This document shows, piece after piece, positions 33,705 to 45,290 of a DNA stretch of 64,000 nt. How positions within the stretch are numbered: the first letter of the stretch is position 1; each line of letters starts with the position of its first letter. The stretch is from IMG/VR virus record IMGVR_UViG_3300037067_022526, positions 64,001-128,000 of that record; one strand, given 5' to 3'. The notes under the pieces were generated by a model. The model did no database searches. It was not told the DNA's origin and was given only the letters and a program-made list of their open reading frames with translations. Both the position numbers and the translations under genes were made by a program. This stretch comes from a virus. Its lineage: Duplodnaviria; Caudoviricetes.

Positions 33705-34295
33705 TTATTTATGCATGTAAATTGTGGCATCGTTGTTTAGATATTCTTGTTTTATGACTACATTATTGGAAATCGATTTGCAATAACTCAATATTTCATC
33801 TGGATCTCTATATATATAATCATCTAGTTTGTGTTTTGCGTGAATGCTTATAAAATTAAATGCTACGCCTATTTTACATAACTTAAACATTTTGTCGATG
33901 GTCGCCCACATCCATTCTGTGTGATGTGCTGTTGGACTACTGAAAATTCCTGATGCTACTACATAGTCAAATTGCGAATCAATGGTTTCATCGAGAATAT
34001 CCAACACAAAAACATTTGCATCGGGATATCTCTGTTTTGCTATTTGTATTCTTGCCGGATCGATATCAACTCCGGTATAATTTGTATCCCTCTGTATGTG
34101 CTTGAACAAATCTGCGTATCCGCATCCTACATCTAAAACGGTTTTATGCGACCAGTCACCGATCCCCTTAAGTATATCAAACCGAGTTTCTTGAGTGCAA
34201 CAGCTATACCATCCGAGTATTTTGGGATGTTCGGAGAACATATCAGACAGTATCGCATTAAAATTTATGATTTCAAGTTTATCTTCTTCAAACAT
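33705..34295 (-). CDS. Class I SAM-dependent methyltransferase
   Basis: VLDVGCGYAD, YTGVDI, FDYVVASGIF. Confidence 0.88.
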   Translation of the reverse strand: MFEEDKLEIINFNAILSDMFSEHPKILGWYSCCTQETRFDILKGIGDWSHKTVLDVGCGYADLFKHIQRDTNYTGVDIDPARIQIAKQRYPDANVFVLDILDETIDSQFDYVVASGIFSSPTAHHTEWMWATIDKMFKLCKIGVAFNFISIHAKHKLDDYIYRDPDEILSYCKSISNNVVIKQEYLNNDATIYMHK

Positions 34296-34335
34296 GATAT
34301 ATTATACACTTTTGAAAAATTTTAGAGGAATCTGC

Positions 34336-34363
34336 TTGACTTCCGGTGAATAGTGGGTATAAT
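34336..34363 (+). promoter_or_regulatory. sigma70 promoter of the tRNA cluster
   Basis: TTGACT-16-TATAAT. Confidence 0.75.
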
Positions 34364-34369
34364 TAGGCA

Positions 34370-34400
34370 GTCGCGCCTTGATAGGCGTGTGGATTGTAAG
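34370..34400 (+). repeat. Solitary canonical type I-C-like CRISPR repeat
   Basis: GTCGCGCCTTGATAGGCGTGTGGATTGTAAG against the canonical pattern GTCGCGCC-loop-GGCGCGTGGATTGAAAC. Confidence 0.65.
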
Positions 34401-34409
34401 GAGATTATC

Positions 34410-34478
34410 GTGAAACGAGAGCTAGACAGATTATATTGTTTGCTGGATTGGTACCTCCGAAAGGAGGTGGCTGCCTAA
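34410..34478 (+). CDS. Putative attenuator leader peptide MKRELDRLYCLLDWYLRKEVAA
   Basis: AAGGAG 6 nt before GTG; codons match the downstream tRNA anticodons; followed by a terminator. Confidence 0.7.
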   Translation: MKRELDRLYCLLDWYLRKEVAA

Positions 34479-34500
34479 GACTCGTTTCGCTTTTTCTATG

Positions 34501-34540
34501 AGTCCCCGGTAGCCCAAGAGCTTCCGGGGACTTTTCTTTT
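34501..34540 (+). terminator. Intrinsic terminator immediately before the first tRNA
   Basis: AGTCCCCGG..CCGGGGACT hairpin followed by TTTCTTTT. Confidence 0.8.
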
Positions 34541-34541
34541 G

Positions 34542-34616
34542 GGCAGAGTAGACCAATTGGCAGGAGTCGCAAAGCTCAAACCTTTGAATGTGCGGGTCCG
34601 AGTCCCGCCTCTGCTA
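34542..34616 (+). tRNA. tRNA-Leu(CAA), short variable arm
   Basis: Cloverleaf; anticodon arm CAAAG-CTCAAAC-CTTTG; A73; no encoded CCA. Confidence 0.85.
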
Positions 34617-34623
34617 TTTTTTT

Positions 34624-34698
34624 GGCCGGGTAGACCAACGGCAGGAGTCGTCGAGCTTAGAACTCGAACAGTGTTGGGTTCAAATCCCACCCCGGCTA
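34624..34698 (+). tRNA. tRNA-Leu(TAG), short variable arm
   Basis: TCGAG-CTTAGAA-CTCGA; TTCAAAT T-loop. Confidence 0.85.
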
Positions 34699-34701
34699 TT
34701 C

Positions 34702-34794
34702 GCAGGAGAGGCCACTGTTGGATATGAGTGGCGCGAGACTGTAAATCTCGTCCCTTTGTGGTAAACATCGGCGGTTCGATTCCGTCCTCCTGCA
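34702..34794 (+). tRNA. tRNA-Tyr(GTA)
   Basis: CGAGA-CTGTAAA-TCTCG; long variable region; extended D-stem. Confidence 0.85.
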
Positions 34795-34808
34795 TTTTCA
34801 AAATATTT

Positions 34809-34883
34809 GGGCTATTGGAGGAGTCTGGAGTCCTCATCTCCCTGTCACGGAGAAAATCATGGGTTCAAATCCCATATAGCCCG
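34809..34883 (+). tRNA. tRNA-Asp(GTC)
   Basis: TCTCC-CTGTCAC-GGAGA; G73. Confidence 0.92.
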
Positions 34884-34888
34884 TAAAT

Positions 34889-34962
34889 GGCGACGTAGAC
34901 CAACGGCAGGAGTCATCAAGCTTAAGCCTTGAACAGTGTGAGTTCGAATCTCACCGTCGCTA
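34889..34962 (+). tRNA. tRNA-Leu(TAA), short variable arm
   Basis: TCAAG-CTTAAGC-CTTGA; TTCGAAT T-loop. Confidence 0.88.
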
Positions 34963-34966
34963 TTTT

Positions 34967-35035
34967 AGGACAGCCAGCAGCCTGGACCTGAGACTCCAAA
35001 TCTCAGAGGAAGGGGGCAGCACCCTTCTGGTCCTG
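34967..35035 (+). tRNA. Atypical tRNA-Trp(CCA)
   Basis: CTGAGA-CTCCAAA-TCTCAG anticodon arm, G73; reduced D-arm, non-canonical T-loop, bulged acceptor stem. Confidence 0.6.
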
Positions 35036-35096
35036 TTGTCTCAATCAACACAAGGAGAACAAAGATGAGAGACTAGATGAAAATCACTGTGATAGG

Positions 35097-35450
35097 ATGT
35101 ATTATTGTGACACAAAAACATGGGAAACGGTTGGACCCACGACCATCCAAAAAATTTGGTGGGGACTAGAGATATGCACTTTTGGATGGCATATAGACAA
35201 TTGGTGGGAGCATTGGGGAATCAGTATTTGCTGGTCGTCTCATTGGGTAGGACAGTCAAAGTGGTGGGATTTTGTGGTTACATGGGGCAGGCAATACCGT
35301 GGCCGAGTTAAGTATTATTTCAAGAGATTTGAAAAATCGCAGTTTCCTAAGTGGCTTGGCAATCAATGTCGGCTGCCCTTTGGACTACGTTCTTTTCATC
35401 TTTATCTTAATAAACAGAATGTCCCATTCTATCTTCGGTTGTCGTGGTAA
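35097..35450 (+). CDS. Trp-rich hypothetical protein
   Basis: 14 Trp in 117 aa; lies within the tRNA cluster; start uncertain. Confidence 0.4.
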   Translation: MYYCDTKTWETVGPTTIQKIWWGLEICTFGWHIDNWWEHWGISICWSSHWVGQSKWWDFVVTWGRQYRGRVKYYFKRFEKSQFPKWLGNQCRLPFGLRSFHLYLNKQNVPFYLRLSW

Positions 35451-35456
35451 ACAAAA

Positions 35457-35527
35457 GACTCAGTGGATGAGCGGATAGTCTCAAGTCTGCAAAACTTGCT
35501 ACGCGGGTTCGAATCCCGCCTGAGTCT
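35457..35527 (+). tRNA. tRNA-Cys(GCA)
   Basis: CAAGT-CTGCAAA-ACTTG; U73. Confidence 0.9.
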
Positions 35528-35581
35528 TATATATCACATTATTCCGCTTGACTTTTTTTGAATCTGTGTTATCATATCTGC

Positions 35582-36187
35582 ATGAAACAATATCCGACCA
35601 TTTCGAAAGTGATTCGCCGAGATATTGATATCTATGCGTTTGATAAGTTCGACGGGTCTAATATTCGAGCAGAATGGACAAGAAAGAATGGGTTTTTTAA
35701 GTTTGGTAGCAGAAACGTGTTAATCGATGATAAGCACAAAGATCTTGGCAAATCGATTTCTTTGATGCAGTCCAAATACGAAGACGATTTAAGTAATATA
35801 TTCCGCAAAGAGCGATTTGACAAAGTTACCTGCTTTTTTGAATTCTTTGGACCGAATTCATTTGGCGGACAGCATAACCCAAACGATGACCATTCAATTA
35901 TTTTGCTTGATATCAATCCGCACAAAAGGGGCATATTAGACCCCCGACAATTCTTGAAAATGGTTGGACATTTGGACGTTCCACGACTATTATATCAAGG
36001 TAAGGCAAATGCCGAATTCGAGAATTCAGTTCGGGATAGTTCTATAAATATTACTTTTGAAGGTGTTGTTTGTAAAGGCATGTATCGTAATACCTTAGTA
36101 ATGTTCAAAATTAAAAGTAATGCATGGATCGAAAAGCTAAAACAATTTTGTGGCGGTGATCTAAAATTGTTTGAGGAATTGTATTGA
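35582..36187 (+). CDS. RNA ligase (Rnl2-like nucleotidyltransferase domain)
   Basis: KFDGSN (motif I), FFEFFG, EGVVCK, FKIK. Confidence 0.75.
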   Translation: MKQYPTISKVIRRDIDIYAFDKFDGSNIRAEWTRKNGFFKFGSRNVLIDDKHKDLGKSISLMQSKYEDDLSNIFRKERFDKVTCFFEFFGPNSFGGQHNPNDDHSIILLDINPHKRGILDPRQFLKMVGHLDVPRLLYQGKANAEFENSVRDSSINITFEGVVCKGMYRNTLVMFKIKSNAWIEKLKQFCGGDLKLFEELY

Positions 36188-36864: not shown

Positions 36865-37812
36865 ATGACAAAAAAGATTAAAATTTACGACTGTTCCAAT
36901 TCGTCCGACAGACCACCGCATCGTGGTTATGGTGGTGCTGTTGAAAATGCCTGTGTTAGTATGTTAAAGCAGAATGCTTATAAATTTGGATTTGAATTTG
37001 TTTCCGATCCAAATAAAGCAGACGTTTTGTTCACCAACGACGTATATCCTCAAAGTTTGTTGTATCTCAACAAACCTAGAGTGAAAAGAATGGACGGTAT
37101 ATATTGGCAATCTGATCTAAAAGAAAGAAATGGCAAATTAAGCGCTGCTGCCCTCCTGTCAGATATGGTTATTTTCATCTCTGGCTTTAGTCAAAAATCC
37201 TATTTCAATATGTGTGGCCCCTTACAGTGCAGTAAAGTCGTATTAAACGCTGTCGATAATAATGTATTTTATAGAATTACACCAAAAATTATCAAACAAA
37301 AACCTGAGGTCTGGGCAGCTGCTGCGACTCATTGGGAAAGACCAGAAAAAAGGCTGAAAAATATCTGTCAATTTGCCGAAATTATTCAAAAAGATAGAGC
37401 AATGCTTTATTTGGTGGGCGCTGTTCCTTCGGATATTGAACTGCCCTTTAACGTTATACCTCTAGGATATTTGTCTCCTATGGATTGGAATTTTGTTTTG
37501 AATTTGTCGGATGCTTTTATAAATTTATCTTATCGGGATGCCGCACCCAAAGTAGTATTGGAAGCTTGTCGTTGTGAATTACCAATTCTACTCGCAAACA
37601 GCGGCGGCGTTCCAGAATTGTGTGATGGAATAGAAATTGACGATCCAGCATCTGACTGGTATGAGGACTCAGTGCCTCAACTGGATAAATCGAAAATTTC
37701 CGATGGATATCGTCTTATGTTGGAAAATTTTACAAACACGGCTAAAGTAGATCAAAATACTGATCAAAAAATGCTTACTGGATATTTTGACACTTTCAGA
37801 GAACTGGTATGA
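36865..37812 (+). CDS. GT-B (GT4-like) glycosyltransferase
   Basis: D..PKVVLEA....LP......GGVPE motif. Confidence 0.8.
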   Translation: MTKKIKIYDCSNSSDRPPHRGYGGAVENACVSMLKQNAYKFGFEFVSDPNKADVLFTNDVYPQSLLYLNKPRVKRMDGIYWQSDLKERNGKLSAAALLSDMVIFISGFSQKSYFNMCGPLQCSKVVLNAVDNNVFYRITPKIIKQKPEVWAAAATHWERPEKRLKNICQFAEIIQKDRAMLYLVGAVPSDIELPFNVIPLGYLSPMDWNFVLNLSDAFINLSYRDAAPKVVLEACRCELPILLANSGGVPELCDGIEIDDPASDWYEDSVPQLDKSKISDGYRLMLENFTNTAKVDQNTDQKMLTGYFDTFRELV

Positions 37813-38240
37813 TCAAATTTTGGAGAACAACAGACAAATATGGTCCGCTGTCAAATTTCGCACAATTTGGTTTTGTGTTAGACGGAAAATATTATCAAAC
37901 AAGTGAGCATTACTATCAATCTCAAAAATCGTTAGACCCAGCAATTCAAGAAAAAATACGCACTCAAAAAACTCCCAAATTATCCAAGCAATTAGCCTCG
38001 ACAATTCAATTAAGGCCCGATTGGGAAGATATCAAATATCAAATTATGTTCAAAGCATTGAAAGCAAAATTCACCCAGACTGCTTCGCTCAAAGGTCTTC
38101 TGCTCGAAACAGGAGATGAGATTCTGGTTGAAGATAGTCCTTATGATTGTATATGGGGGTGTGGGCGCGATGGAACGGGCCAGAATCTCCTGGGAAAGTG
38201 CCTCACGGAAGTCAGAAACTGGCTTAGAGAATCATCTTGA
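37809..38240 (+). CDS. NADAR (YbiA-like) protein
   Basis: LSNF, TSEHYYQSQK, RPDWE, LLETG..LVEDSP.D..WG..GQNLLG. Confidence 0.92.
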   Translation: MIKFWRTTDKYGPLSNFAQFGFVLDGKYYQTSEHYYQSQKSLDPAIQEKIRTQKTPKLSKQLASTIQLRPDWEDIKYQIMFKALKAKFTQTASLKGLLLETGDEILVEDSPYDCIWGCGRDGTGQNLLGKCLTEVRNWLRESS

Positions 38241-38282
38241 CAAATAATACATTTGAGGTATAATAGAAGAAGAGGACGAAGA

Positions 38283-38741
38283 ATGTATGCGCTTTATGCA
38301 GATGGGTCGTGTCAGCCCAATCCCGGTACTGGTGGCTGGGCCTATATATTAAAGTGCCCCGATGGCACAGAACTGGTAGGTTCGGGATTTGAAAACGAAT
38401 CTACCAACAACCGGATGGAGTTACGATCCGTCATTGAGGGATTGTATGTTTTTAAACAAACAGCGCCTGTCAACGAGCAATTGACCCTTATCTTGGATAG
38501 TAAATACGTTCTGGATGGTATTTCGATCTGGAGTAAAAAATGGGTAAAACAGGGTTGGATTAAGAAAAATGGAAAGCCAGTTTTAAATGAAAATTTATGG
38601 AAAGAACTAATCTTTCTCGCTTCGAATATCAAAATGAAGTTTGAGCACGTAAAAGGGCATACCGGACATCCTGAAAACGAAAGATGCGACAAATTGGCGG
38701 TTCAGGCAGCAAAAAGAAGCATTGCAAAGGAGCAGAGATGA
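38283..38741 (+). CDS. rnhA: Ribonuclease HI
   Basis: DGSC.PNPG.GG, TNNRMEL, DSKYV, VKGHTG..ENERCD. Confidence 0.95.
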   Translation: MYALYADGSCQPNPGTGGWAYILKCPDGTELVGSGFENESTNNRMELRSVIEGLYVFKQTAPVNEQLTLILDSKYVLDGISIWSKKWVKQGWIKKNGKPVLNENLWKELIFLASNIKMKFEHVKGHTGHPENERCDKLAVQAAKRSIAKEQR

Positions 38742-39081
38742 AATTCATTCGAAAATCTTCGGCCACCAGAAATAAATCGCTTTTTCCTAGATACTATTGT
38801 TCCGGGAACGGATACGATACATGGGAGATTGATATTTTGCAGGGACATCGAAGAACAGAAAGTCTTGCTAAGTTTCGGGTAGTCAAATCGGGTGATAATT
38901 TGTCCATTGAACGCAATGTAATTAATAAACCCAATAAAACATTTCCAGTTACATCCCTAAAAAATACAGATAAAATGTCTGTATCAGAAGAGGTAATGTT
39001 TCGAACAGCATATTGTGAGGCACAAGTTCTTGCGATAGAATATACCAGAAAAATACAAGAGAAATATACAAGTGAGACACG

Positions 39082-40089
39082 ATGAGCAGAGATTTTTATG
39101 AGATATTAGGTGTTTCAAAATCTGCTTCTCAAGATGAAATTAAAAGTGCTTATCGAAAACTCGCCAAAGAATGGCATCCCGATAAGCACTCCGAGGATAA
39201 GAAAAAAGAAGCAGAAATTAAATTTAAAGAAATTGCTGCAGCTTATGAAACGCTAATTGATTCTGATAAAAGGCAGAAATACGACCAATTTGGGGAAGAT
39301 GGAAATAAGTTTACATCTGGATGGAGTTCTCATGTTGATATAGACGATATGGGATTTGGATTCTTTGGAAGGCGAAAACCCCAGAGGGGAGAAGATATAA
39401 AAATACTTGTTCCCCTAACCCTGGAAGAGTCTGCCACTGGCATTACTAAAACCATAGATGTTCCCCGAAATGATATATGCGACAAATGCAAGGGTGCCGG
39501 TGGCACAGGATCTGCCTGTTCCGCGTGTGGAGGACAGGGTCGGGTTCAACAGAAACATCCTATGGGAATATCTATATCAACCTGTCCAGCTTGTTGGGGC
39601 GAAGGAGTCAGAATCACAACGCAATGTCCTAATTGCTCTGGTGCAGGATATACTACATCATCTAAGCAAATCGAAATTAAAATACCACCCGGAGTTGATA
39701 CGGGCGAAGCAATTTTAATTCAACACGAGGGACACAGAAGTATTTATGATACTCCAAGAGGCCACGTTTATTTTGTGATGAAAATAAGTTCACATCCCAA
39801 TTTTACTAGGGATAATATCACAATACGATCCCGTGCTAAAATTCCCATAACTACGGCAATACTTGGGGGGAAGATACCAGTAAATACCATCTATGGAACT
39901 CAAATGGAATTAAAAATACCGCCAGGAACTCAGCCATCGGCAACTTTCCGAATGAAGGGTAAAGGGATAAAGAAGAACAATCTCATAGGTGATCATCTTA
40001 TAGAAGTGCAGGTTGAAATACCTCAGAAAATGTCCGATGAAGCTAAAGACGCATTCCAAAAGTTTGCCAATATCTATAAGAAACGGTAG
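39082..40089 (+). CDS. dnaJ: DnaJ chaperone
   Basis: J-domain HPD, four CxxCxGxG repeats, C-terminal domain. Confidence 0.95.
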   Translation: MSRDFYEILGVSKSASQDEIKSAYRKLAKEWHPDKHSEDKKKEAEIKFKEIAAAYETLIDSDKRQKYDQFGEDGNKFTSGWSSHVDIDDMGFGFFGRRKPQRGEDIKILVPLTLEESATGITKTIDVPRNDICDKCKGAGGTGSACSACGGQGRVQQKHPMGISISTCPACWGEGVRITTQCPNCSGAGYTTSSKQIEIKIPPGVDTGEAILIQHEGHRSIYDTPRGHVYFVMKISSHPNFTRDNITIRSRAKIPITTAILGGKIPVNTIYGTQMELKIPPGTQPSATFRMKGKGIKKNNLIGDHLIEVQVEIPQKMSDEAKDAFQKFANIYKKR

Positions 40090-40103
40090 AAGGTGATTTA
40101 AAA

Positions 40104-40147
40104 TAACCGCGAGTGGAATTCTAGCAATTTTCCGCCCGCGGTTTCTT
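40104..40147. terminator. Hairpin between convergent dnaJ and sigma genes
   Basis: AACCGCG..GGAA / TTCC..CGCGGTT inverted repeat. Confidence 0.55.
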
Positions 40148-40184
40148 TAGATGTGCATCTTTTTTGAGTCTGCTAGTTTGGTGC

Positions 40185-40937
40185 TCATTCCAGAGTTGGA
40201 TCTGCCTTCATATATTGGCGTAATTTATTAACCCCGTCCGCTTGTATTTGTCGTATTCGTTCCTTAGATAAGTTATAAATTTGGCTAACTATTTCTAGAG
40301 TATTTTTCGTATCAGTGAACCTGAGACCAATTATTGCCCGCTCTCTACTGGTTAAATTGGCAGAGATAAGAGCAGATTCTAATCTATCTTTATATAGTTC
40401 TAAATTCTCATCTTCTTGTTTCTCAATAGGATCAAATTCGGATATATCGAGAGCATTGTGTTTGTTGTGTTGTCTCGCGGCGGCATTAAAACGGTATAGG
40501 ATTGATCGGCATGCGTAAGTACTGAATTTAAATCCTCGCCACGGATCAAACGATTCTGCTGCAGATATCAGCGCCAAAGAACCATCGCTAACAAGCGTAT
40601 CTCTATCAACTCCATTCACTGATGTTTTCTGGATACAGTCATAAACTAACGACATGTTGGCTGTTATTATACGATTGCGAATTATATCTGTAACTTTTTT
40701 CCAGAAGAATGTATCTCTATTTTCCTGCATTTCACAATATAGCCTCCATTTAGCGTAGTGAAATGCCTTAAAGTAAATTATTTCATCTTTTACTACTTCG
40801 TCTGGATATGATAATGAAATTGAATTTTCGCTGATACCAATTGGCGATAAAAAAATCGATGAAGCATTGGGGTTCTGGAATTCTGCCACCGCACTTTTGT
40901 TGAACTTAATTGTGTTCGACTCATTTGTTTTACTCAT
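40185..40937 (-). CDS. Sigma-70 family RNA polymerase sigma factor
   Basis: Region 2 FDPWRGFKFSTYA; region 4 LT.RER.II.LRF..TLE......LSKERIRQI. Confidence 0.92.
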   Translation of the reverse strand: MSKTNESNTIKFNKSAVAEFQNPNASSIFLSPIGISENSISLSYPDEVVKDEIIYFKAFHYAKWRLYCEMQENRDTFFWKKVTDIIRNRIITANMSLVYDCIQKTSVNGVDRDTLVSDGSLALISAAESFDPWRGFKFSTYACRSILYRFNAAARQHNKHNALDISEFDPIEKQEDENLELYKDRLESALISANLTSRERAIIGLRFTDTKNTLEIVSQIYNLSKERIRQIQADGVNKLRQYMKADPTLE

Positions 40938-41035
40938 AGTGGGCATTATACCACATTGGCACCGGATGTCAAGACATTTTAGGATTCATGGGTTTTTTGA
41001 TTGACAAATGCCTATTTAGTGGTATACTGTGCTAT

Positions 41036-42400
41036 ATGAAAGCAAAAGAATTGTTAAACATCGGGTACAAAGAAGGTCCGGTAATTGGAATCGCCCTAAA
41101 GGCGACTCAAAATGCCAAGGCACACGGTATGCACGCTCAAGAAATTAGAGATATTGTGCGCTACATTCTGTCTGACCCATCGACCTATTTGAATCACCCC
41201 CAATTGGGGATTATTGCACAATATTTAGAATCACAAAAGCGACCTGCATACGATTTTTCTGATAAAGAATTTTCAATATTCGGGAAAGAACTAGTTGATG
41301 AAAATACGCTAGAGCAAATGAAAAATTGCATGAGATTGCCAATCTCAGTCGCAGGGGCAACGATGCCTGACGCACATGTCGGGTATGGTTTGCCGATCGG
41401 TGGAGTTTTAGCAACTGATAATTCGATAATACCTTTTGCCGTCGGGGTCGATATAGCCTGTCGTATGATGCTTACAGTGTTGCCAATGCCAGCGTCAGAT
41501 ATTGGTAAATATCGAGATGATTTTCATAAATTAATTGGGAAGCACACTCGATTCGGATTGGGAGCATCATATGAAAATAAATTAGAGCACGAAGTAATGG
41601 ATGATGACTGGAGTTTTTCTCCCATAGTTAAACAGGTAAAAGATTTGGCCTGGGAACAGCTTGGAACTCAGGGCGGAGGCAACCATTTCTGTGATGTTGG
41701 AGAAATAGATCTGGCCGGAAATAAATATATTGCAATAATTACTCATTCTGGTTCTCGCGGTCCCGGAAATAAAATTGCAACTTACTATTCTGATTTGGCT
41801 AAATCTTTACGTCCATTTTTGCCAAATGAATATAAACACTTGGCCTGGTTGGATATGGATAGCGATGAAGGAGTTGAGTATTGGCGCGCAATGCACCTAA
41901 TGGGTAGATATGCATCTGCGAGCCATCACTTAACACATGAGGGTTTTCTGAGTGGACTAAAAGTAGAGCCACTTCTACAAGTTGAGAATCACCACAATTT
42001 CTGCTGGAAAGAAATTGTAAATGGACGCGAACTTTATGTTCATCGAAAGGGTGCTACTCCTGCCCAATCAGGAGTACTGGGGATAATACCCGGAAGCATG
42101 GCTACGCCGGGGTTTTTAGTAAAAGGTAAAGGCAATTTATTGTCTCTTAATTCCGCTTCTCACGGAGCAGGGAGAGCCAAAAGTCGTAAAGCCACCAAAG
42201 AATCTACTCGATGGAGCCACGTCAGAGCAATGCTCAAAGAGCGTGGCGTGGAATTGCTTGGAGCAGGATTGGATGAGGCACCAACTGGCTACAAGCCAAT
42301 TCGGGATGTCATGAATGCTCAGAAAGATTTGGTTGAAATCATAGCTGAGTTCACGCCTCGTATCGTAATGATGGCAGAAGACGGGTCTTCTGAAGATTAA
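41036..42400 (+). CDS. rtcB: RtcB RNA ligase
   Basis: MPDAHVGYGLPIGG, VGVDIAC, GGGNHF, HSGSRG, NHHN, HRKGA, PGSM, SHGAGR. Confidence 0.96.
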   Translation: MKAKELLNIGYKEGPVIGIALKATQNAKAHGMHAQEIRDIVRYILSDPSTYLNHPQLGIIAQYLESQKRPAYDFSDKEFSIFGKELVDENTLEQMKNCMRLPISVAGATMPDAHVGYGLPIGGVLATDNSIIPFAVGVDIACRMMLTVLPMPASDIGKYRDDFHKLIGKHTRFGLGASYENKLEHEVMDDDWSFSPIVKQVKDLAWEQLGTQGGGNHFCDVGEIDLAGNKYIAIITHSGSRGPGNKIATYYSDLAKSLRPFLPNEYKHLAWLDMDSDEGVEYWRAMHLMGRYASASHHLTHEGFLSGLKVEPLLQVENHHNFCWKEIVNGRELYVHRKGATPAQSGVLGIIPGSMATPGFLVKGKGNLLSLNSASHGAGRAKSRKATKESTRWSHVRAMLKERGVELLGAGLDEAPTGYKPIRDVMNAQKDLVEIIAEFTPRIVMMAEDGSSED

Positions 42401-43356
42401 TATACAGCGTAAGGCAAATTAAATGCAGCACCGTATTGCAATAGCATGTTTTCTAGATACACATTGAGAGGCCCATTAGATTGCATTGTATCGACTGAAT
42501 TCCCACATTGATTTTTTGGTTCCGGGCTCAGTATTGGACTAGGTATACTGACTTTTGCCTTATTCCAGTTGTTCGCTCCAATATCTTCTATTAGAATTTT
42601 TCTAATCTCCTCATCTGATGGAACAGCAACATTCGGATCTATAACAAAATTAAGTCCCATTCTATTTGTCCACTCTCTAATTCGGCGTATGGGTATTATC
42701 AAGTTAAAAGTTTCACCGCCACCACGAACAAGCATTCCGACGTATTCTCCATTTTCTTCGAGGAAAATGCCACCGCCAGATGACCCCGGCAAAGCAGTGC
42801 AGCTTGTCTGGTCATAGATTTTTCCATCATATATTCTACCAATAGAATTAATAATACCATTAGTCAGAGAATTGCTTCCGAATTCACCCCGTAGCGATCC
42901 AACATGATATAGCCTTGTTCCTATCTTGGGTATATCATTGCTCAAATAAAATGTGGCGCTCTCTGTTGCGAAATTTTTCTTTATGATTTGCAACAACGCC
43001 AAATCTTCTCCGCTGTCAGCATTTGAGTATGAGATTACTTTTGCAGTCATCTCCACTTGTCCCACTTTTCTGCCGTCTTCGTATACATTTTGAATTATAC
43101 TTGCATCATTAAATTCAACAACAGTCCGATCCATCCCTGAATCTATCACGGATCTGGTTTTTCGCAGAGATGAAACCACATGCCCCGCTGTTAGAACGAA
43201 ATTATATTCACCTCGTTTAACAATAACACCCGAGCCCTCACTTCCTCCGGCTTTGATTGTCACAGAGACAGATTGTAATTTTTCTGCCACTGTATCCGCA
43301 ATTGTAACCAAAGGAAAAACTAACAGTAAAAATATCCCAATTAGAGTTTTAGACAT
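42397..43356 (-). CDS. Secreted trypsin-like serine protease
   Basis: Signal peptide; LTAGHV, DLALL, PGSSGGG triad motifs. Confidence 0.88.
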   Translation of the reverse strand: MSKTLIGIFLLLVFPLVTIADTVAEKLQSVSVTIKAGGSEGSGVIVKRGEYNFVLTAGHVVSSLRKTRSVIDSGMDRTVVEFNDASIIQNVYEDGRKVGQVEMTAKVISYSNADSGEDLALLQIIKKNFATESATFYLSNDIPKIGTRLYHVGSLRGEFGSNSLTNGIINSIGRIYDGKIYDQTSCTALPGSSGGGIFLEENGEYVGMLVRGGGETFNLIIPIRRIREWTNRMGLNFVIDPNVAVPSDEEIRKILIEDIGANNWNKAKVSIPSPILSPEPKNQCGNSVDTMQSNGPLNVYLENMLLQYGAAFNLPYAVY

Positions 43357-43388
43357 GACTGGTCTCCTTTGTATGGGCCTTCTATGAA

Positions 43389-45290
43389 TTATACCTGACG
43401 ATACACGTCAAGTTCTCCGGAGTCTATCATATTCTTGACAATTTGTTCAGCCTGCTCTTCTGTTAATAATGGATTTTTTATCTGTTCATCTCTAATTTTG
43501 TTTCTAACGAATTGTATGTAGCCAATCCTTCCTTCTGGTGGTCGCCCTGGTTCAATACCAACAATAGACTGGACCCGTTCTCTGGATAGTATCTGAGGTA
43601 AAAACGATTTGGCAATTTCTACAGCCTTTGTTTTTTGCTCATCGACCGATAAAACCTGGGCAATTCCAAAGTTTCTATACTGTGCCTGCCGTATGGCATT
43701 CATTATCTCGCCTATTATTTTGCCCGGCTTAATACCGAGCAATCGTTGAATTTCATTCCCGTTCAACAATATTGGTAAATTTATCTTTTCAATTCTCTGA
43801 ATTGTTTTATCGTATTCGCGGGCTTCGCCCATATCTGGCTGTTCGTGCTTAGACATCGCATCAGCCATGGCGTGAATATATATTATTTTCCAAAGCGGGT
43901 TTTTGTCCTTAAACTCCGCTATTTGGGCTGCATTATCTCGATTTCTAATATGGTCATGAGGCTGCATATGAGATGAAATAATACCACTAACGGATGATTT
44001 TTCTTGGTTTGACATCCTCATTGCATCAGAAAATCTGCTCCAGATTTCGTTACTAGATTCCTCGTGAGACATTTTCTGCCCTTTCGGCAGATTGGGATTC
44101 CCGGAGTATCCGATTTCTCCAGTTGGCTTTACCTTCTGTGTCCGTGGATCAAGTTTCCCAAAATCGTGAAATAATGAAGCCATATTAAGCAGCATTCTTT
44201 CCATTGGAGAAAGATTATATTGTTTAGCTAATTTATTGGCGTTCTTAAGCACTCTAAGGGTATGATTGATTAAATTCATGCTGTGATGCACATTTCTCTG
44301 ATCCATGTGTAATGGATTAAATGATTGCGGCAAACGAAGCATATTAGATAAAAGCCCGCATTGGTACATAATTCTCATGGCATCTGCAGGACGATCCCCA
44401 GACATGATTTTCCTAAATTCGTCTGCTATCTTTTCTACGACTATGCCCTTCGACGCAGGATCGAACATTTTATTGGTCAGTAATTTTTGTGCGTTTTCAT
44501 CAAACATGGATTCTTTTGTTGGTTCGTCTAATATCGCTTGAGAATATTTACTAAAGAATCGAAGAACCCTCAACAGCCTCGTTGGATCATCTATGAATAT
44601 ACGCCGAGCCTCTATTTGTTGCCAATCATCATCACTAATATTATCGGGTTTTCCACCGTCATACCCAGCAGGGATTGAGGGTGTTCTTAGCTTCATTTGG
44701 GCCAAATCAGGAAATCCACCGGTATAATCTTCTATTGTATTTTCATTTAAATTATAGAACATGGCGTTAATAGTCAGATCTCTCCTGAACGCATCATCCC
44801 AGGGTTTGCCCGGGACAACGATCGGATTTCTCACTAGTTTTTCTCCGGTATTTGGATCTGTCCAAATTTCTTTTCTTAAACTTACTACGTCAATCGGCAA
44901 TCCAAATATAGAGATTTGTCCGGCTGCAATTCGTTTGACTTGTTCATCTTTGGTCCGGAACTCTGCATTTAATATTCTAACATAATTTTGTGCTGTCCCA
45001 AATTTTCGATCCGCAAAACTTTTTAGTCCGTTAACAAAATCTATACCGGAAACTGAATCCACGGTTATGTCAATATCTTTAGGATTTGTGGTCGATTTAA
45101 TATCTGGCCTGGCTATGGGCAATAGTTTATCCCTCGTCCATCCTCCGGCCACTCTTACAATCGGATGAGATGGCATGGTTTGCACTGCTTCAAGAATGAA
45201 ATTAAAAACTTTTTGTTCCTCGGGAGTCCGCGAAATCTGTATTCCTTCCAAGATGGGTCCGTTGATTTTGTTACTTAAAATCTTTAACAT
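43389..45290 (-). CDS. cca: CCA-adding tRNA nucleotidyltransferase with HD domain
   Basis: AGGWTRD..DIDI, RRDLTINA, DDPTRLLR.LRF, HT..LFHDFGK. Confidence 0.9.
   Translation of the reverse strand: MLKILSNKINGPILEGIQISRTPEEQKVFNFILEAVQTMPSHPIVRVAGGWTRDKLLPIARPDIKSTTNPKDIDITVDSVSGIDFVNGLKSFADRKFGTAQNYVRILNAEFRTKDEQVKRIAAGQISIFGLPIDVVSLRKEIWTDPNTGEKLVRNPIVVPGKPWDDAFRRDLTINAMFYNLNENTIEDYTGGFPDLAQMKLRTPSIPAGYDGGKPDNISDDDWQQIEARRIFIDDPTRLLRVLRFFSKYSQAILDEPTKESMFDENAQKLLTNKMFDPASKGIVVEKIADEFRKIMSGDRPADAMRIMYQCGLLSNMLRLPQSFNPLHMDQRNVHHSMNLINHTLRVLKNANKLAKQYNLSPMERMLLNMASLFHDFGKLDPRTQKVKPTGEIGYSGNPNLPKGQKMSHEESSNEIWSRFSDAMRMSNQEKSSVSGIISSHMQPHDHIRNRDNAAQIAEFKDKNPLWKIIYIHAMADAMSKHEQPDMGEAREYDKTIQRIEKINLPILLNGNEIQRLLGIKPGKIIGEIMNAIRQAQYRNFGIAQVLSVDEQKTKAVEIAKSFLPQILSRERVQSIVGIEPGRPPEGRIGYIQFVRNKIRDEQIKNPLLTEEQAEQIVKNMIDSGELDVYRQV

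Follow-up and report, generated by a model that had tools for sequence, protein, structure and literature searches.

A probable leader-peptide attenuator ahead of phage tRNA genes, with regulatory codons that match the tRNAs encoded behind it

We analysed a stretch of 64,000 nucleotides (hereafter, the window) of a Caudoviricetes phage, corresponding to positions 64,001 to 128,000 of the IMG/VR record IMGVR_UViG_3300037067_022526. In the window, a cluster of tRNA genes is preceded by a short open reading frame (ORF) whose codons match the following tRNAs and which overlaps one of two mutually exclusive RNA helices. Comparisons with related phages showed that both helices covary, and that leader codons and tRNA sets vary together between loci. 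Taken together, these sequence data indicate that the locus probably represents a ribosome-mediated leader-peptide transcription attenuator placed before a phage tRNA operon. The same contig also occurs in SRR6484325.

All elements of the locus are on the plus strand. A sigma-70-type promoter-like site (34336-34363; TTGACT at 34336-34341 and TATAAT at 34358-34363, with 16 nt spacing and 11 of 12 matches) is preceded by an element, GAGGAATCTGC, resembling the AGGATTT..CC box that is found ahead of the -35 hexamer in eight of eight relatives. It is the sole usable promoter of the cluster and lies upstream of the terminator hairpin described below, the gene further upstream being divergent. The leader RNA harbours a 5' hairpin (34372-34389; 7 bp, UGAU loop, -11.1 kcal/mol), followed by a Shine-Dalgarno sequence, AAGGAG (34398-34403), located 6 nt before the GTG start of the leader ORF (34410-34478), which comprises 22 codons and a TAA stop codon. 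Its codons 5-15 (34422-34454), CTA GAC AGA TTA TAT TGT TTG CTG GAT TGG TAC, constitute the regulatory block. Towards its 3' end the ORF contains a small hairpin (34453-34468; ACCUCC GAAA GGAGGU), which serves as a spacer between this block and the antiterminator and possibly also as a pause hairpin.

Four segments account for the alternative structures. Segment 1 (34410-34419) includes the start codon and forms 10 bp with positions 34481-34490 (-15.6 kcal/mol). Segment 2 (34469-34485), the 5' strand of the antiterminator, consists of GGCTGCC, TAA and GACTCGT, and thus contains the stop codon. Segment 3 (34498-34514) is the 5' arm of the terminator, which can pair with either segment 2 or segment 4. 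The latter (34520-34540) comprises the 3' arm (34520-34533) and the T-tract (34532-34540) of a predicted intrinsic terminator, whose hairpin (34500-34533) folds at about -23 kcal/mol (-23.5) and was overlooked in a simple terminator scan solely because of the 8-nt loop limit of that scan. The T-tract ends 1-2 nt ahead of the first tRNA gene. The entire leader transcript has a lower folding energy than 200 of 200 shuffled sequences (z -4.4). No match was found between positions 33800 and 36200 with the Rfam models Trp_leader, His_leader, Leu_leader, Thr_leader, Phe_leader and T-box at E <= 5. Apart from the tRNA-Trp gene, the promoter, Shine-Dalgarno sequence, 22-codon ORF, hairpin with T-tract and tRNA cluster are located where a previous sequence-only reading of this DNA had placed them, and codons 5-15 are identical to those that it listed.

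That reading counted seven tRNA genes, six of which we recovered. ARAGORN and Rfam both identified tRNA-Leu(CAA) (34542-34616, 75 nt), tRNA-Leu(TAG) (34623-34699), tRNA-Asp(GTC) (34808-34884), tRNA-Leu(TAA) (34888-34963) and tRNA-Cys(GCA) (35456-35528). A probable class-II tRNA-Tyr(GTA) (34705-34794, 90 nt) was detected by ARAGORN at a relaxed threshold only; in Rfam it scores 31 bits on the tRNA-Sec model, under the family cut-off, and its folding z is -2.9. The seventh, a Trp-like element (34966-35040) whose anticodon would be CCA, can be arranged into a cloverleaf with a CUCCAAA loop and is recognised by neither ARAGORN nor Rfam. It folds no better than shuffled sequences (z -0.7), lacks the conserved D and T loops, and matches the tRNA-Trp of relatives at the acceptor ends and in the anticodon loop alone. 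This element is a non-canonical or decayed tRNA-Trp whose identity as a tRNA is doubtful. A Trp-rich ORF of 117 codons between it and tRNA-Cys (35097-35450) is probably not a gene, as it has no Pfam match, no homologue and no gene-caller prediction. The phage record harbours this single tRNA block (Leu, Asp, Tyr, Cys, Trp).

Downstream of the tRNA genes, an RNA-ligase-like gene (35582-36187) with a KxDG motif has its own promoter-like site (35548-35575). Pfam PF09414 matches 19 of 32 homologues of its product and is unmatched in the protein of the window itself, and a search of solved structures with the ligase profile yielded only a marginal match. The RNA-ligase-like gene is the first gene behind the attenuator in eight of eight relatives (8 of 9 members). 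The window also codes for RtcB (40988-42400), a tRNA nucleotidyltransferase (43389-45290, minus strand) and a NADAR protein.

The regulatory block had been described as carrying 10 of 11 codons cognate to the downstream tRNAs, with all seven anticodons represented. With the verified tRNAs, this amounts to 9 of 11 codons and to all six verified anticodons; the Trp codon brings the count to 10 of 11 if the unrecognised Trp-like element is included. AGA is the non-cognate codon of the block, and there are no cognate codons among the last six of the ORF. A six-frame scan of the window, in which the background is approximately 20%, revealed two loci alone that reach 10 of 11. The second one (40655; 40622-40693, upstream of RtcB) was discarded as a leader, being antisense inside a sigma-factor gene; it has neither a Shine-Dalgarno sequence nor a terminator and represents a chance match. 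Judged from the window alone, the chance probability of the codon match is roughly 1e-4 to 1e-3; it is the related loci that decide the matter.

We identified homologous leaders in eight more phage contigs (L108, L109, L110, L117, L118, L127, L132 and L189). The nine leaders share the promoter, the Shine-Dalgarno sequence, an ORF of 18 to 22 codons, the small hairpin within the ORF (present in per-sequence folds of nine of nine members), the position of the stop codon and the terminator; the position of the 5' hairpin is occupied in seven of the eight relatives, with a different sequence. The mean column identity of the aligned leaders is 63%, which rules out that they are assembly copies of one sequence. 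The reading frame is kept in all nine ORFs, whose indels have lengths divisible by three. Leu, Asp, Tyr, Cys and Trp occur in each of the nine leader peptides, in an order that varies between subfamilies. In the six clusters of sufficient length, every tRNA gene is for Leu, Tyr, Asp or Cys, apart from Trp genes in three clusters and one Ser gene. Comparing leader codons with cluster anticodons in related phages, as the sequence-only reading had suggested, thus showed that the five amino acids are kept and that the tRNA sets match.

In these nine leaders, which are homologous (type A) and hence do not represent nine independent observations, cognate codons account for 98 of 134 positions (73%) from codon 2 up to, but not including, the last six codons, and for 8 of 54 (15%) within those six. 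In four loci, the leader offers a codon for each distinct anticodon. The leaders of relatives also include non-cognate AGC, Phe, Val and His codons.

A model built from the nine sequences (R1) gave 89-108 bits on members and nothing comparable in other loci. The leader is absent from approximately 150 other RNA-ligase loci with different tRNA neighbours, and the loci of the ligase homologues P0006 and P0018 likewise have different tRNAs and no leader. A blastn search of the phage GenBank collection with the region returned tRNA matches alone, without the leader, and scans of IMG/VR yielded no matches, whether run with the single ligase protein, with an exact pattern of the leader or with a degenerate pattern of the terminator loop. 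With a Leu-tRNA pattern we collected 23 loci, none of which has a leader detectable by blastn; three of them (L006, L010 and L017) were later picked up by R1 as divergent leaders.

In these divergent leaders, composition follows another tRNA set. In L010, four Ser, seven Leu and two Tyr tRNAs follow a leader rich in Ser, Leu and Tyr. In L006/L193, a Ser/Leu/Phe/Tyr leader is followed by 21 tRNAs, solely for Leu (12), Ser (4), Phe (3) and Tyr (2), and in L017/L194, a Ser/Leu/Phe/Tyr/Gly leader is followed by Leu, Tyr and Phe tRNAs. An unbiased scan revealed more leader types covering other sets of amino acids; L105, L005, L057, L047, L081, L184, L014 and L018 resemble a small ORF coded in the amino acids of the tRNAs that follow and coupled to a terminator and antiterminator. 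For some divergent types, a scan with simple windows gave no significant pairing between segments 2 and 3. We permuted the tRNA sets among 32 candidate leaders picked irrespective of codon/tRNA match. The value obtained with their own sets was 0.478, versus 0.269 +/- 0.027 with permuted sets, and 0 of 20,000 permutations reached the former. The codon/anticodon correlation, whose lack in homologous loci had been put forward as grounds for refutation, is thus present.

These data bear on one alternative, namely that a small ORF arose by chance downstream of a promoter and ahead of a stable hairpin for 5' processing of the tRNA precursor. The second 10 of 11 match at 40655 shows that such matches do arise by chance in the window, and one of the seven tRNAs goes unrecognised by the detectors. 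Against coincidence, the ORF is kept in nine contigs with its frame intact, the alternative helices covary, and the permutation test gave 0 of 20,000; we consider this explanation extremely improbable.

Both helices proposed in the sequence-only reading, 1:2 (34410-34419 with 34481-34490) and 2:3 (34479-34485 with 34498-34504), are present in the window. The latter had been presented as a modest helix of 7 bp, with segment 2 placed just after the stop codon. Our analyses redefined it: positions 34469-34485, which comprise the last codons, the stop codon and the next 7 nt, pair with 34498-34514 over 14 bp and so engage the full 5' arm of the terminator. Across the nine leaders, 90.7% of the cells of this antiterminator are paired (20-44% in slid controls) and 7 of its 12 pairs are altered on both sides, a covariation equalled in 0 of 500 shuffles. 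The terminator also covaries, with 10 of 19 pairs altered on both sides and 0 of 500 shuffles as good. Helix 1:2 has energies of -11 to -21 kcal/mol in all members, modestly better than those of shuffled sequences (z -0.3 to -3.5), and shows no covariation over the nine-leader family.

Folding had been suggested as a check. In the window, the antiterminator hairpin (34466-34516) is at -20.6 kcal/mol versus -23.5 kcal/mol for the terminator, which is slightly more stable at equilibrium. In equilibrium folds of the full-length leader with a masking ribosome, the terminator persists at all or nearly all stall positions in seven of nine members. As the terminator is the more stable structure at equilibrium, the switch would have to be kinetic, as in the trp leader; its persistence in the masked folds is expected for a kinetic attenuator, and thermodynamics alone does not prove a switch. 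The geometry of the locus is consistent with such a mechanism. Assuming a footprint extending 12 nt beyond the A site, a ribosome on the last regulatory codon (34452-34454) would have its front edge at approximately 34464, short of segment 2 at 34469. Conversely, the presence of the stop codon inside segment 2, combined with the covariation of both helices, suggests that a ribosome at the stop codon would mask the antiterminator.

The same features help in weighing the possibility that the ORF codes for a functional micropeptide, or that the transcript, 170 nt long, is a small RNA, the terminator being an ordinary one, the tRNAs resulting from leaky read-through and the codon match being a by-product of constraints on the peptide or on RNA structure. 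Some leader peptides and attenuator RNAs are known to act in trans (PMC7298713, PMC6614838), the leader is strongly structured, the peptides of the window and of L108 align at Leu 5, 8, 12 and 16 plus an Asp-x-Tyr-Leu motif, and segment 1 constrains the codons CTA GAT AGC in L118, L127 and L132. However, the subfamilies differ in residue order and agree in the five-amino-acid composition, composition follows the tRNA set in unrelated leaders, the stop codon lies within the covarying antiterminator strand, and cognate codons avoid the last six positions. All of these are unexpected for a free-standing peptide or small RNA, which makes this explanation improbable.

Under the attenuation model, RNA synthesis would start near 34370 and a ribosome would load at the GTG codon at 34410. 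Quick decoding of the Leu, Asp, Tyr, Cys and Trp codons would bring the ribosome to the TAA codon, where it would cover segment 2; the terminator (34500-34540) would fold, and the RNA would end 1-2 nt short of the first tRNA gene. Should any of these codons be slow, the ribosome would stall within codons 5-15 with its front edge upstream of segment 2, which would then be free to pair along the full length of the terminator's 5' arm, allowing the polymerase to continue into the tRNA genes. Read-through would yield the three tRNA-Leu, tRNA-Tyr, tRNA-Asp and tRNA-Cys, together with the Trp-like element and, probably, the RNA ligase. We infer that the ORF is translated, that transcription can terminate at the hairpin, that ribosomes stall in the regulatory block and that a shortage in decoding is the physiological trigger. 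Since the circuit would produce exactly those tRNAs that read the tested codons, it would form a closed loop on decoding capacity.

This organization closely resembles that of the enterobacterial trpL, hisL, leuL, pheL, thrL and ilvL leaders, in particular the multivalent thr and ilv leaders, in which a short ORF preceded by a Shine-Dalgarno sequence is similarly enriched in regulatory codons. In the attenuators of amino-acid operons, a terminator likewise precedes the first gene, an exclusive antiterminator uses its 5' arm, and segment 2 is masked once the ribosome has reached the stop codon but free while it stalls at the regulatory codons. However, those leaders control biosynthetic enzymes, whereas tRNA genes and an RNA ligase follow the phage leader, whose output would be the sensed molecule itself. 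The phage leader also differs in sampling five amino acids and nearly every isoacceptor once or twice, without runs, and in having its stop codon inside segment 2. The pheST attenuator of Escherichia coli, in which leader-peptide attenuation governs phenylalanyl-tRNA synthetase, similarly controls a component of the translation apparatus, but it is cellular, senses one amino acid and regulates a synthetase. In T-box riboswitches, tRNA status likewise sets read-through via a choice between terminator and antiterminator; these elements, however, directly bind one uncharged tRNA through a specifier codon and the T-box bulge and involve no translation, in contrast with the Shine-Dalgarno-led ORF and the many codons of the phage leader.

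As to the signal sensed, one possibility is a response to tRNA damage: a host anticodon nuclease or tRNase toxin would cut the tRNAs for Leu, Tyr, Trp, Asp and Cys, and the specific role of the attenuator would be to sense this cleavage and induce replacement tRNAs together with a repair ligase. Sensing of tRNA depletion was the rationale of the sequence-only reading; the proposal is a sub-case of the attenuator explanation, with the same mechanism. We know of no nuclease with such a target set, an attenuator would be blind to the difference between cleavage, amino-acid starvation and a naturally poor host supply, and the leader types that cover other sets of amino acids fit a general control of supply at least equally well. 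In its favour are the position of the RNA-ligase-like gene in 8 of 9 members, the presence of RtcB, tRNA nucleotidyltransferase and NADAR protein genes in the window, and the ability of phage tRNAs to evade tRNA-targeting defences (PMC10264068, PMC11555353). On balance, we regard damage sensing as rather unlikely.

In a broader and tentative proposal, which we hold with somewhat more doubt than confidence, phages rich in tRNA genes would exert closed-loop control of decoding block by block, each leader sampling almost every isoacceptor encoded behind it; in this lineage, the switch would also drive the RNA ligase, and an attack by host anticodon nucleases would set off both repair and the supply of fresh tRNAs at the same time, the module acting as a tRNA-damage alarm.

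The regulation of phage tRNA genes, and the reasons why given sets are present, have been debated for decades, with codon compensation and evasion of tRNA-targeting defences as contending explanations. In the literature searched, we found no description of leader-peptide attenuation controlling tRNA genes; if our interpretation is correct, this would be the first case known to us. The leader would then show directly, and in a testable way, what the phage "measures" while infecting, and an ORF of 20 codons could predict the tRNA content of incomplete phage contigs. The linkage with an RNA ligase makes the reading in terms of defence and counter-defence amenable to laboratory tests.

The window lies within a 90-kb phage record of IMG/VR, and a 45-kb Logan contig carries an identical copy. 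Next to a minus-strand methyltransferase gene that lies upstream of 34296 and diverges from the leader, we found on the plus strand a near-consensus promoter (TTGACT at 34336-41 and TATAAT at 34358-63, separated by 16 nt), a 5' hairpin (34372-89), a Shine-Dalgarno sequence (AAGGAG, 34398-403), a 22-codon leader ORF with a GTG start (34410-34478) and a predicted terminator hairpin (34500-34533, -23 kcal/mol) with its T-tract (34532-40). The first gene of the tRNA cluster, tRNA-Leu(CAA), starts at 34542. The space between hairpin and tRNA gene is too small for a second promoter, and thus any transcript of the cluster must cross the hairpin. The fold of the leader beats 200 of 200 shuffles (z -4.4), and the region matches no leader or T-box family of Rfam. 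TTGAC..TATAAT-like sites are also present upstream of an RNA-ligase-like gene (35548) and of RtcB (about 41000).

Codons decoded by the tRNAs of the cluster ('cognate' codons) reach 10 of 11 at only two loci in a six-frame scan of the window, the leader and a 23-codon ORF (40622-40693) with a Cys, Trp, Leu, Tyr and Asp run at its end. The latter is antisense in a sigma-factor gene and has no Shine-Dalgarno sequence or terminator. Its resemblance is due to chance and illustrates how often the codon criterion gives false positives; the codon match is rare yet not unique, and the window by itself could not decide.

Relatives were collected using the ligase gene (35582-36187), downstream of the tRNA cluster, as an anchor, which yielded about 160 loci (L108 and L026 being one contig). 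PF09414 matches 19 of 32 ligase homologues, with no match on the window's own protein. A homologous leader is found immediately 5' of the ligase gene at eight loci on other phage contigs (L108, L109, L110, L117, L118, L127, L132 and L189), and such a leader is absent from roughly 150 ligase loci set among other tRNAs. All eight share the promoter, the Shine-Dalgarno sequence, an 18-22-codon ORF with a small hairpin in its 3' part, the stop codon, the hairpin and the T-tract, and seven have the 5' hairpin. Each of the eight also keeps a box, AGGATTT(N)CC, immediately 5' of its -35 TTGAC; the variant in the window (region 34325-34341) is GAGGAATCTGC. The box may act like an UP element or be bound by a factor of phage or host origin. 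Leu, Asp, Tyr, Cys and Trp occur in the nine leader peptides without exception, in varying order, and in all long-enough contigs the tRNAs behind the ligase are restricted to Leu (3-5 isoacceptors), Tyr, Asp and Cys, with Trp added in three contigs and a single Ser.

The alignment of these nine leaders supports two mutually exclusive helices. The sequence-only reading had proposed a 7-bp antiterminator, GACUCGU (34479-85) with AUGAGUC (34498-504). This pairing exists, yet it is only half of a larger helix between segments 2 (34469-85) and 3 (34498-514), in which GGCUGCC (34469-75) also pairs with GGUAGCC (34508-14) and the halves are separated by an internal loop that has the stop codon TAA opposite CCC. 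In the alignment, 90.7% of the cells of the 2:3 helix are paired (20-44% in slid controls), 7 of 12 pairs have changed on both sides, and 0 of 500 shuffles equalled the pairing. The terminator similarly has 10 of 19 pairs changed on both sides (0 of 500 shuffles). Segments 2 and 4 (34520-34533) are alike in sequence, as required, and in the window the antiterminator hairpin is predicted at -20.6 vs -23.5 kcal/mol for the terminator. Helix 1:2 can form in all members (-11 to -21 kcal/mol), with segment 1 (34410-34419 in the window) falling in the regulatory codons, and has no covariation support across the nine leaders.

As for the tRNA genes, Leu-CAA, Leu-TAG, Asp-GTC, Leu-TAA and Cys-GCA, as called from sequence alone, were recovered concordantly by ARAGORN and Rfam, and Tyr-GTA (34705-94), a plausible class-II tRNA, at a relaxed threshold only. 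The proposed Trp gene (34966-35040) was accepted by no tRNA detector: its cloverleaf has an anticodon loop CUCCAAA but lacks canonical D and T loops (a 4-nt D loop; a T loop, GGCAGCA, that lacks the conserved bases). Relatives have a canonical tRNA-Trp, with which it has only the acceptor ends and anticodon loop in common. The element may represent a gene in decay or a tRNA of unusual form. At 75-77 nt, the three tRNA-Leu genes in 34542-34963 are too short to include the long variable arm that bacterial class-II tRNA-Leu has; in relatives, some Leu genes are short (73-77 nt) and others long (82-87 nt). A 415-nt gap (35041-35455) separates the Trp-like element from tRNA-Cys. It contains a 117-codon ORF (35097-35450) with 14 Trp, which has no homologue and is uncalled by gene finders, and a 32-nt stretch (35052-35083; SD-like AAGGAG, then ATG AGA GAC TAG) with 87.5% identity to L110:4095-4126, likewise located between tRNA genes.

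Because the nine leaders are homologous, leader types rather than members represent independent events. A covariance model built from the nine identified divergent leaders before other clusters. At L010, a Ser/Leu/Tyr-rich peptide precedes four Ser, seven Leu and two Tyr tRNAs and samples 10 of 10 anticodons; at L006 (extended as L193), all 21 tRNAs behind a Ser/Leu/Phe/Tyr peptide are for Leu, Ser, Phe or Tyr; and at L017/L194, a Ser/Leu/Phe/Tyr/Gly peptide is followed by Leu, Tyr and Phe tRNAs. We also scanned all loci for a Shine-Dalgarno sequence, small ORF, terminator and tRNA, picking candidates blind to codon match. This gave leaders of the types Asn/Ile/Asp/Cys/Tyr/Lys/Val (L105:2508), Gln/Asn/Pro before three Pro, two Gln and one Asn tRNAs (L057:12395), Trp/Cys (L047:12053 and L179:6964), in which a W-C-x-W-C motif precedes Trp and Cys tRNAs, and Phe/Asn/Ser/Cys (L081:7296 and L184:4431), with further small SD-led ORFs, each ahead of a terminator and of tRNAs for the amino acids that it spells, at L005:2806, L005:4787, L014:4144(-) and L018:11896. 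When tRNA sets were permuted among the 32 candidates, the own-set match was 0.478 vs 0.269 +/- 0.027, and for 23 non-redundant peptides 0.451 vs 0.264, with 0 of 20,000 permutations reaching the own value in both cases. For several of these types, the final codons and the stop again pair with the 5' arm of the terminator (z -2.4 to -6); the simple window used gave nothing significant for the others. At L158:228, an Ala/Arg/Ile/Gly-rich leader lies before ligase and tRNA-Ala genes, where the contig ends. Several related giant-phage loci (L052, L057, L079, L084, L085, L087 and L088) carry tRNAs of the suppressor type, with anticodons CTA and TTA, which suggests that stop codons are recoded in those phages; the window's record yielded no such tRNA.

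The position of the codons agrees with ribosome-controlled switching. As the stop codon lies within segment 2, a terminating ribosome would mask the antiterminator; one stalled at codons 5-15, with a footprint taken as A-site +12 nt, would end upstream of 34469. In line with this geometry, cognate codons fill the upstream stretch (98 of 134, 73%, from codon 2 to the seventh before the stop in nine complete loci) and are scarce among the last six (8 of 54, 15%). Four leaders sample every distinct anticodon of their cluster, and those of the window and L108 have five Leu codons, all different. In equilibrium folding with a masked ribosome the terminator persists in seven of nine members, so the switch must be kinetic, like that of the trp leader.

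An RNA-repair and host-takeover gene set lies near the tRNA cluster (37809-45290), with genes for a NADAR protein (37809-38240), an RNase H, DnaJ (39082-40089), a sigma factor (40185-40946, minus strand), RtcB (40988-42400) and a tRNA nucleotidyltransferase (43389-45290, minus strand). The ligase, RtcB, nucleotidyltransferase and NADAR protein would fit an attenuator responding to tRNA damage, but the mechanism is blind to the difference between nuclease damage, starvation and poor host supply, and we consider damage a rather doubtful candidate for the trigger.

Leader-peptide attenuation is a textbook mechanism. In the literature searched we found no published description of attenuation of phage tRNA genes by a multi-isoacceptor leader, and the phage-tRNA papers examined mention no leaders, attenuators or terminators. 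Judging from sequence comparisons, the leader is probably a leader-peptide attenuator, through which expression of the tRNA operon depends on how fast codons of the same tRNAs are read, and in relatives it would gate the RNA ligase too.
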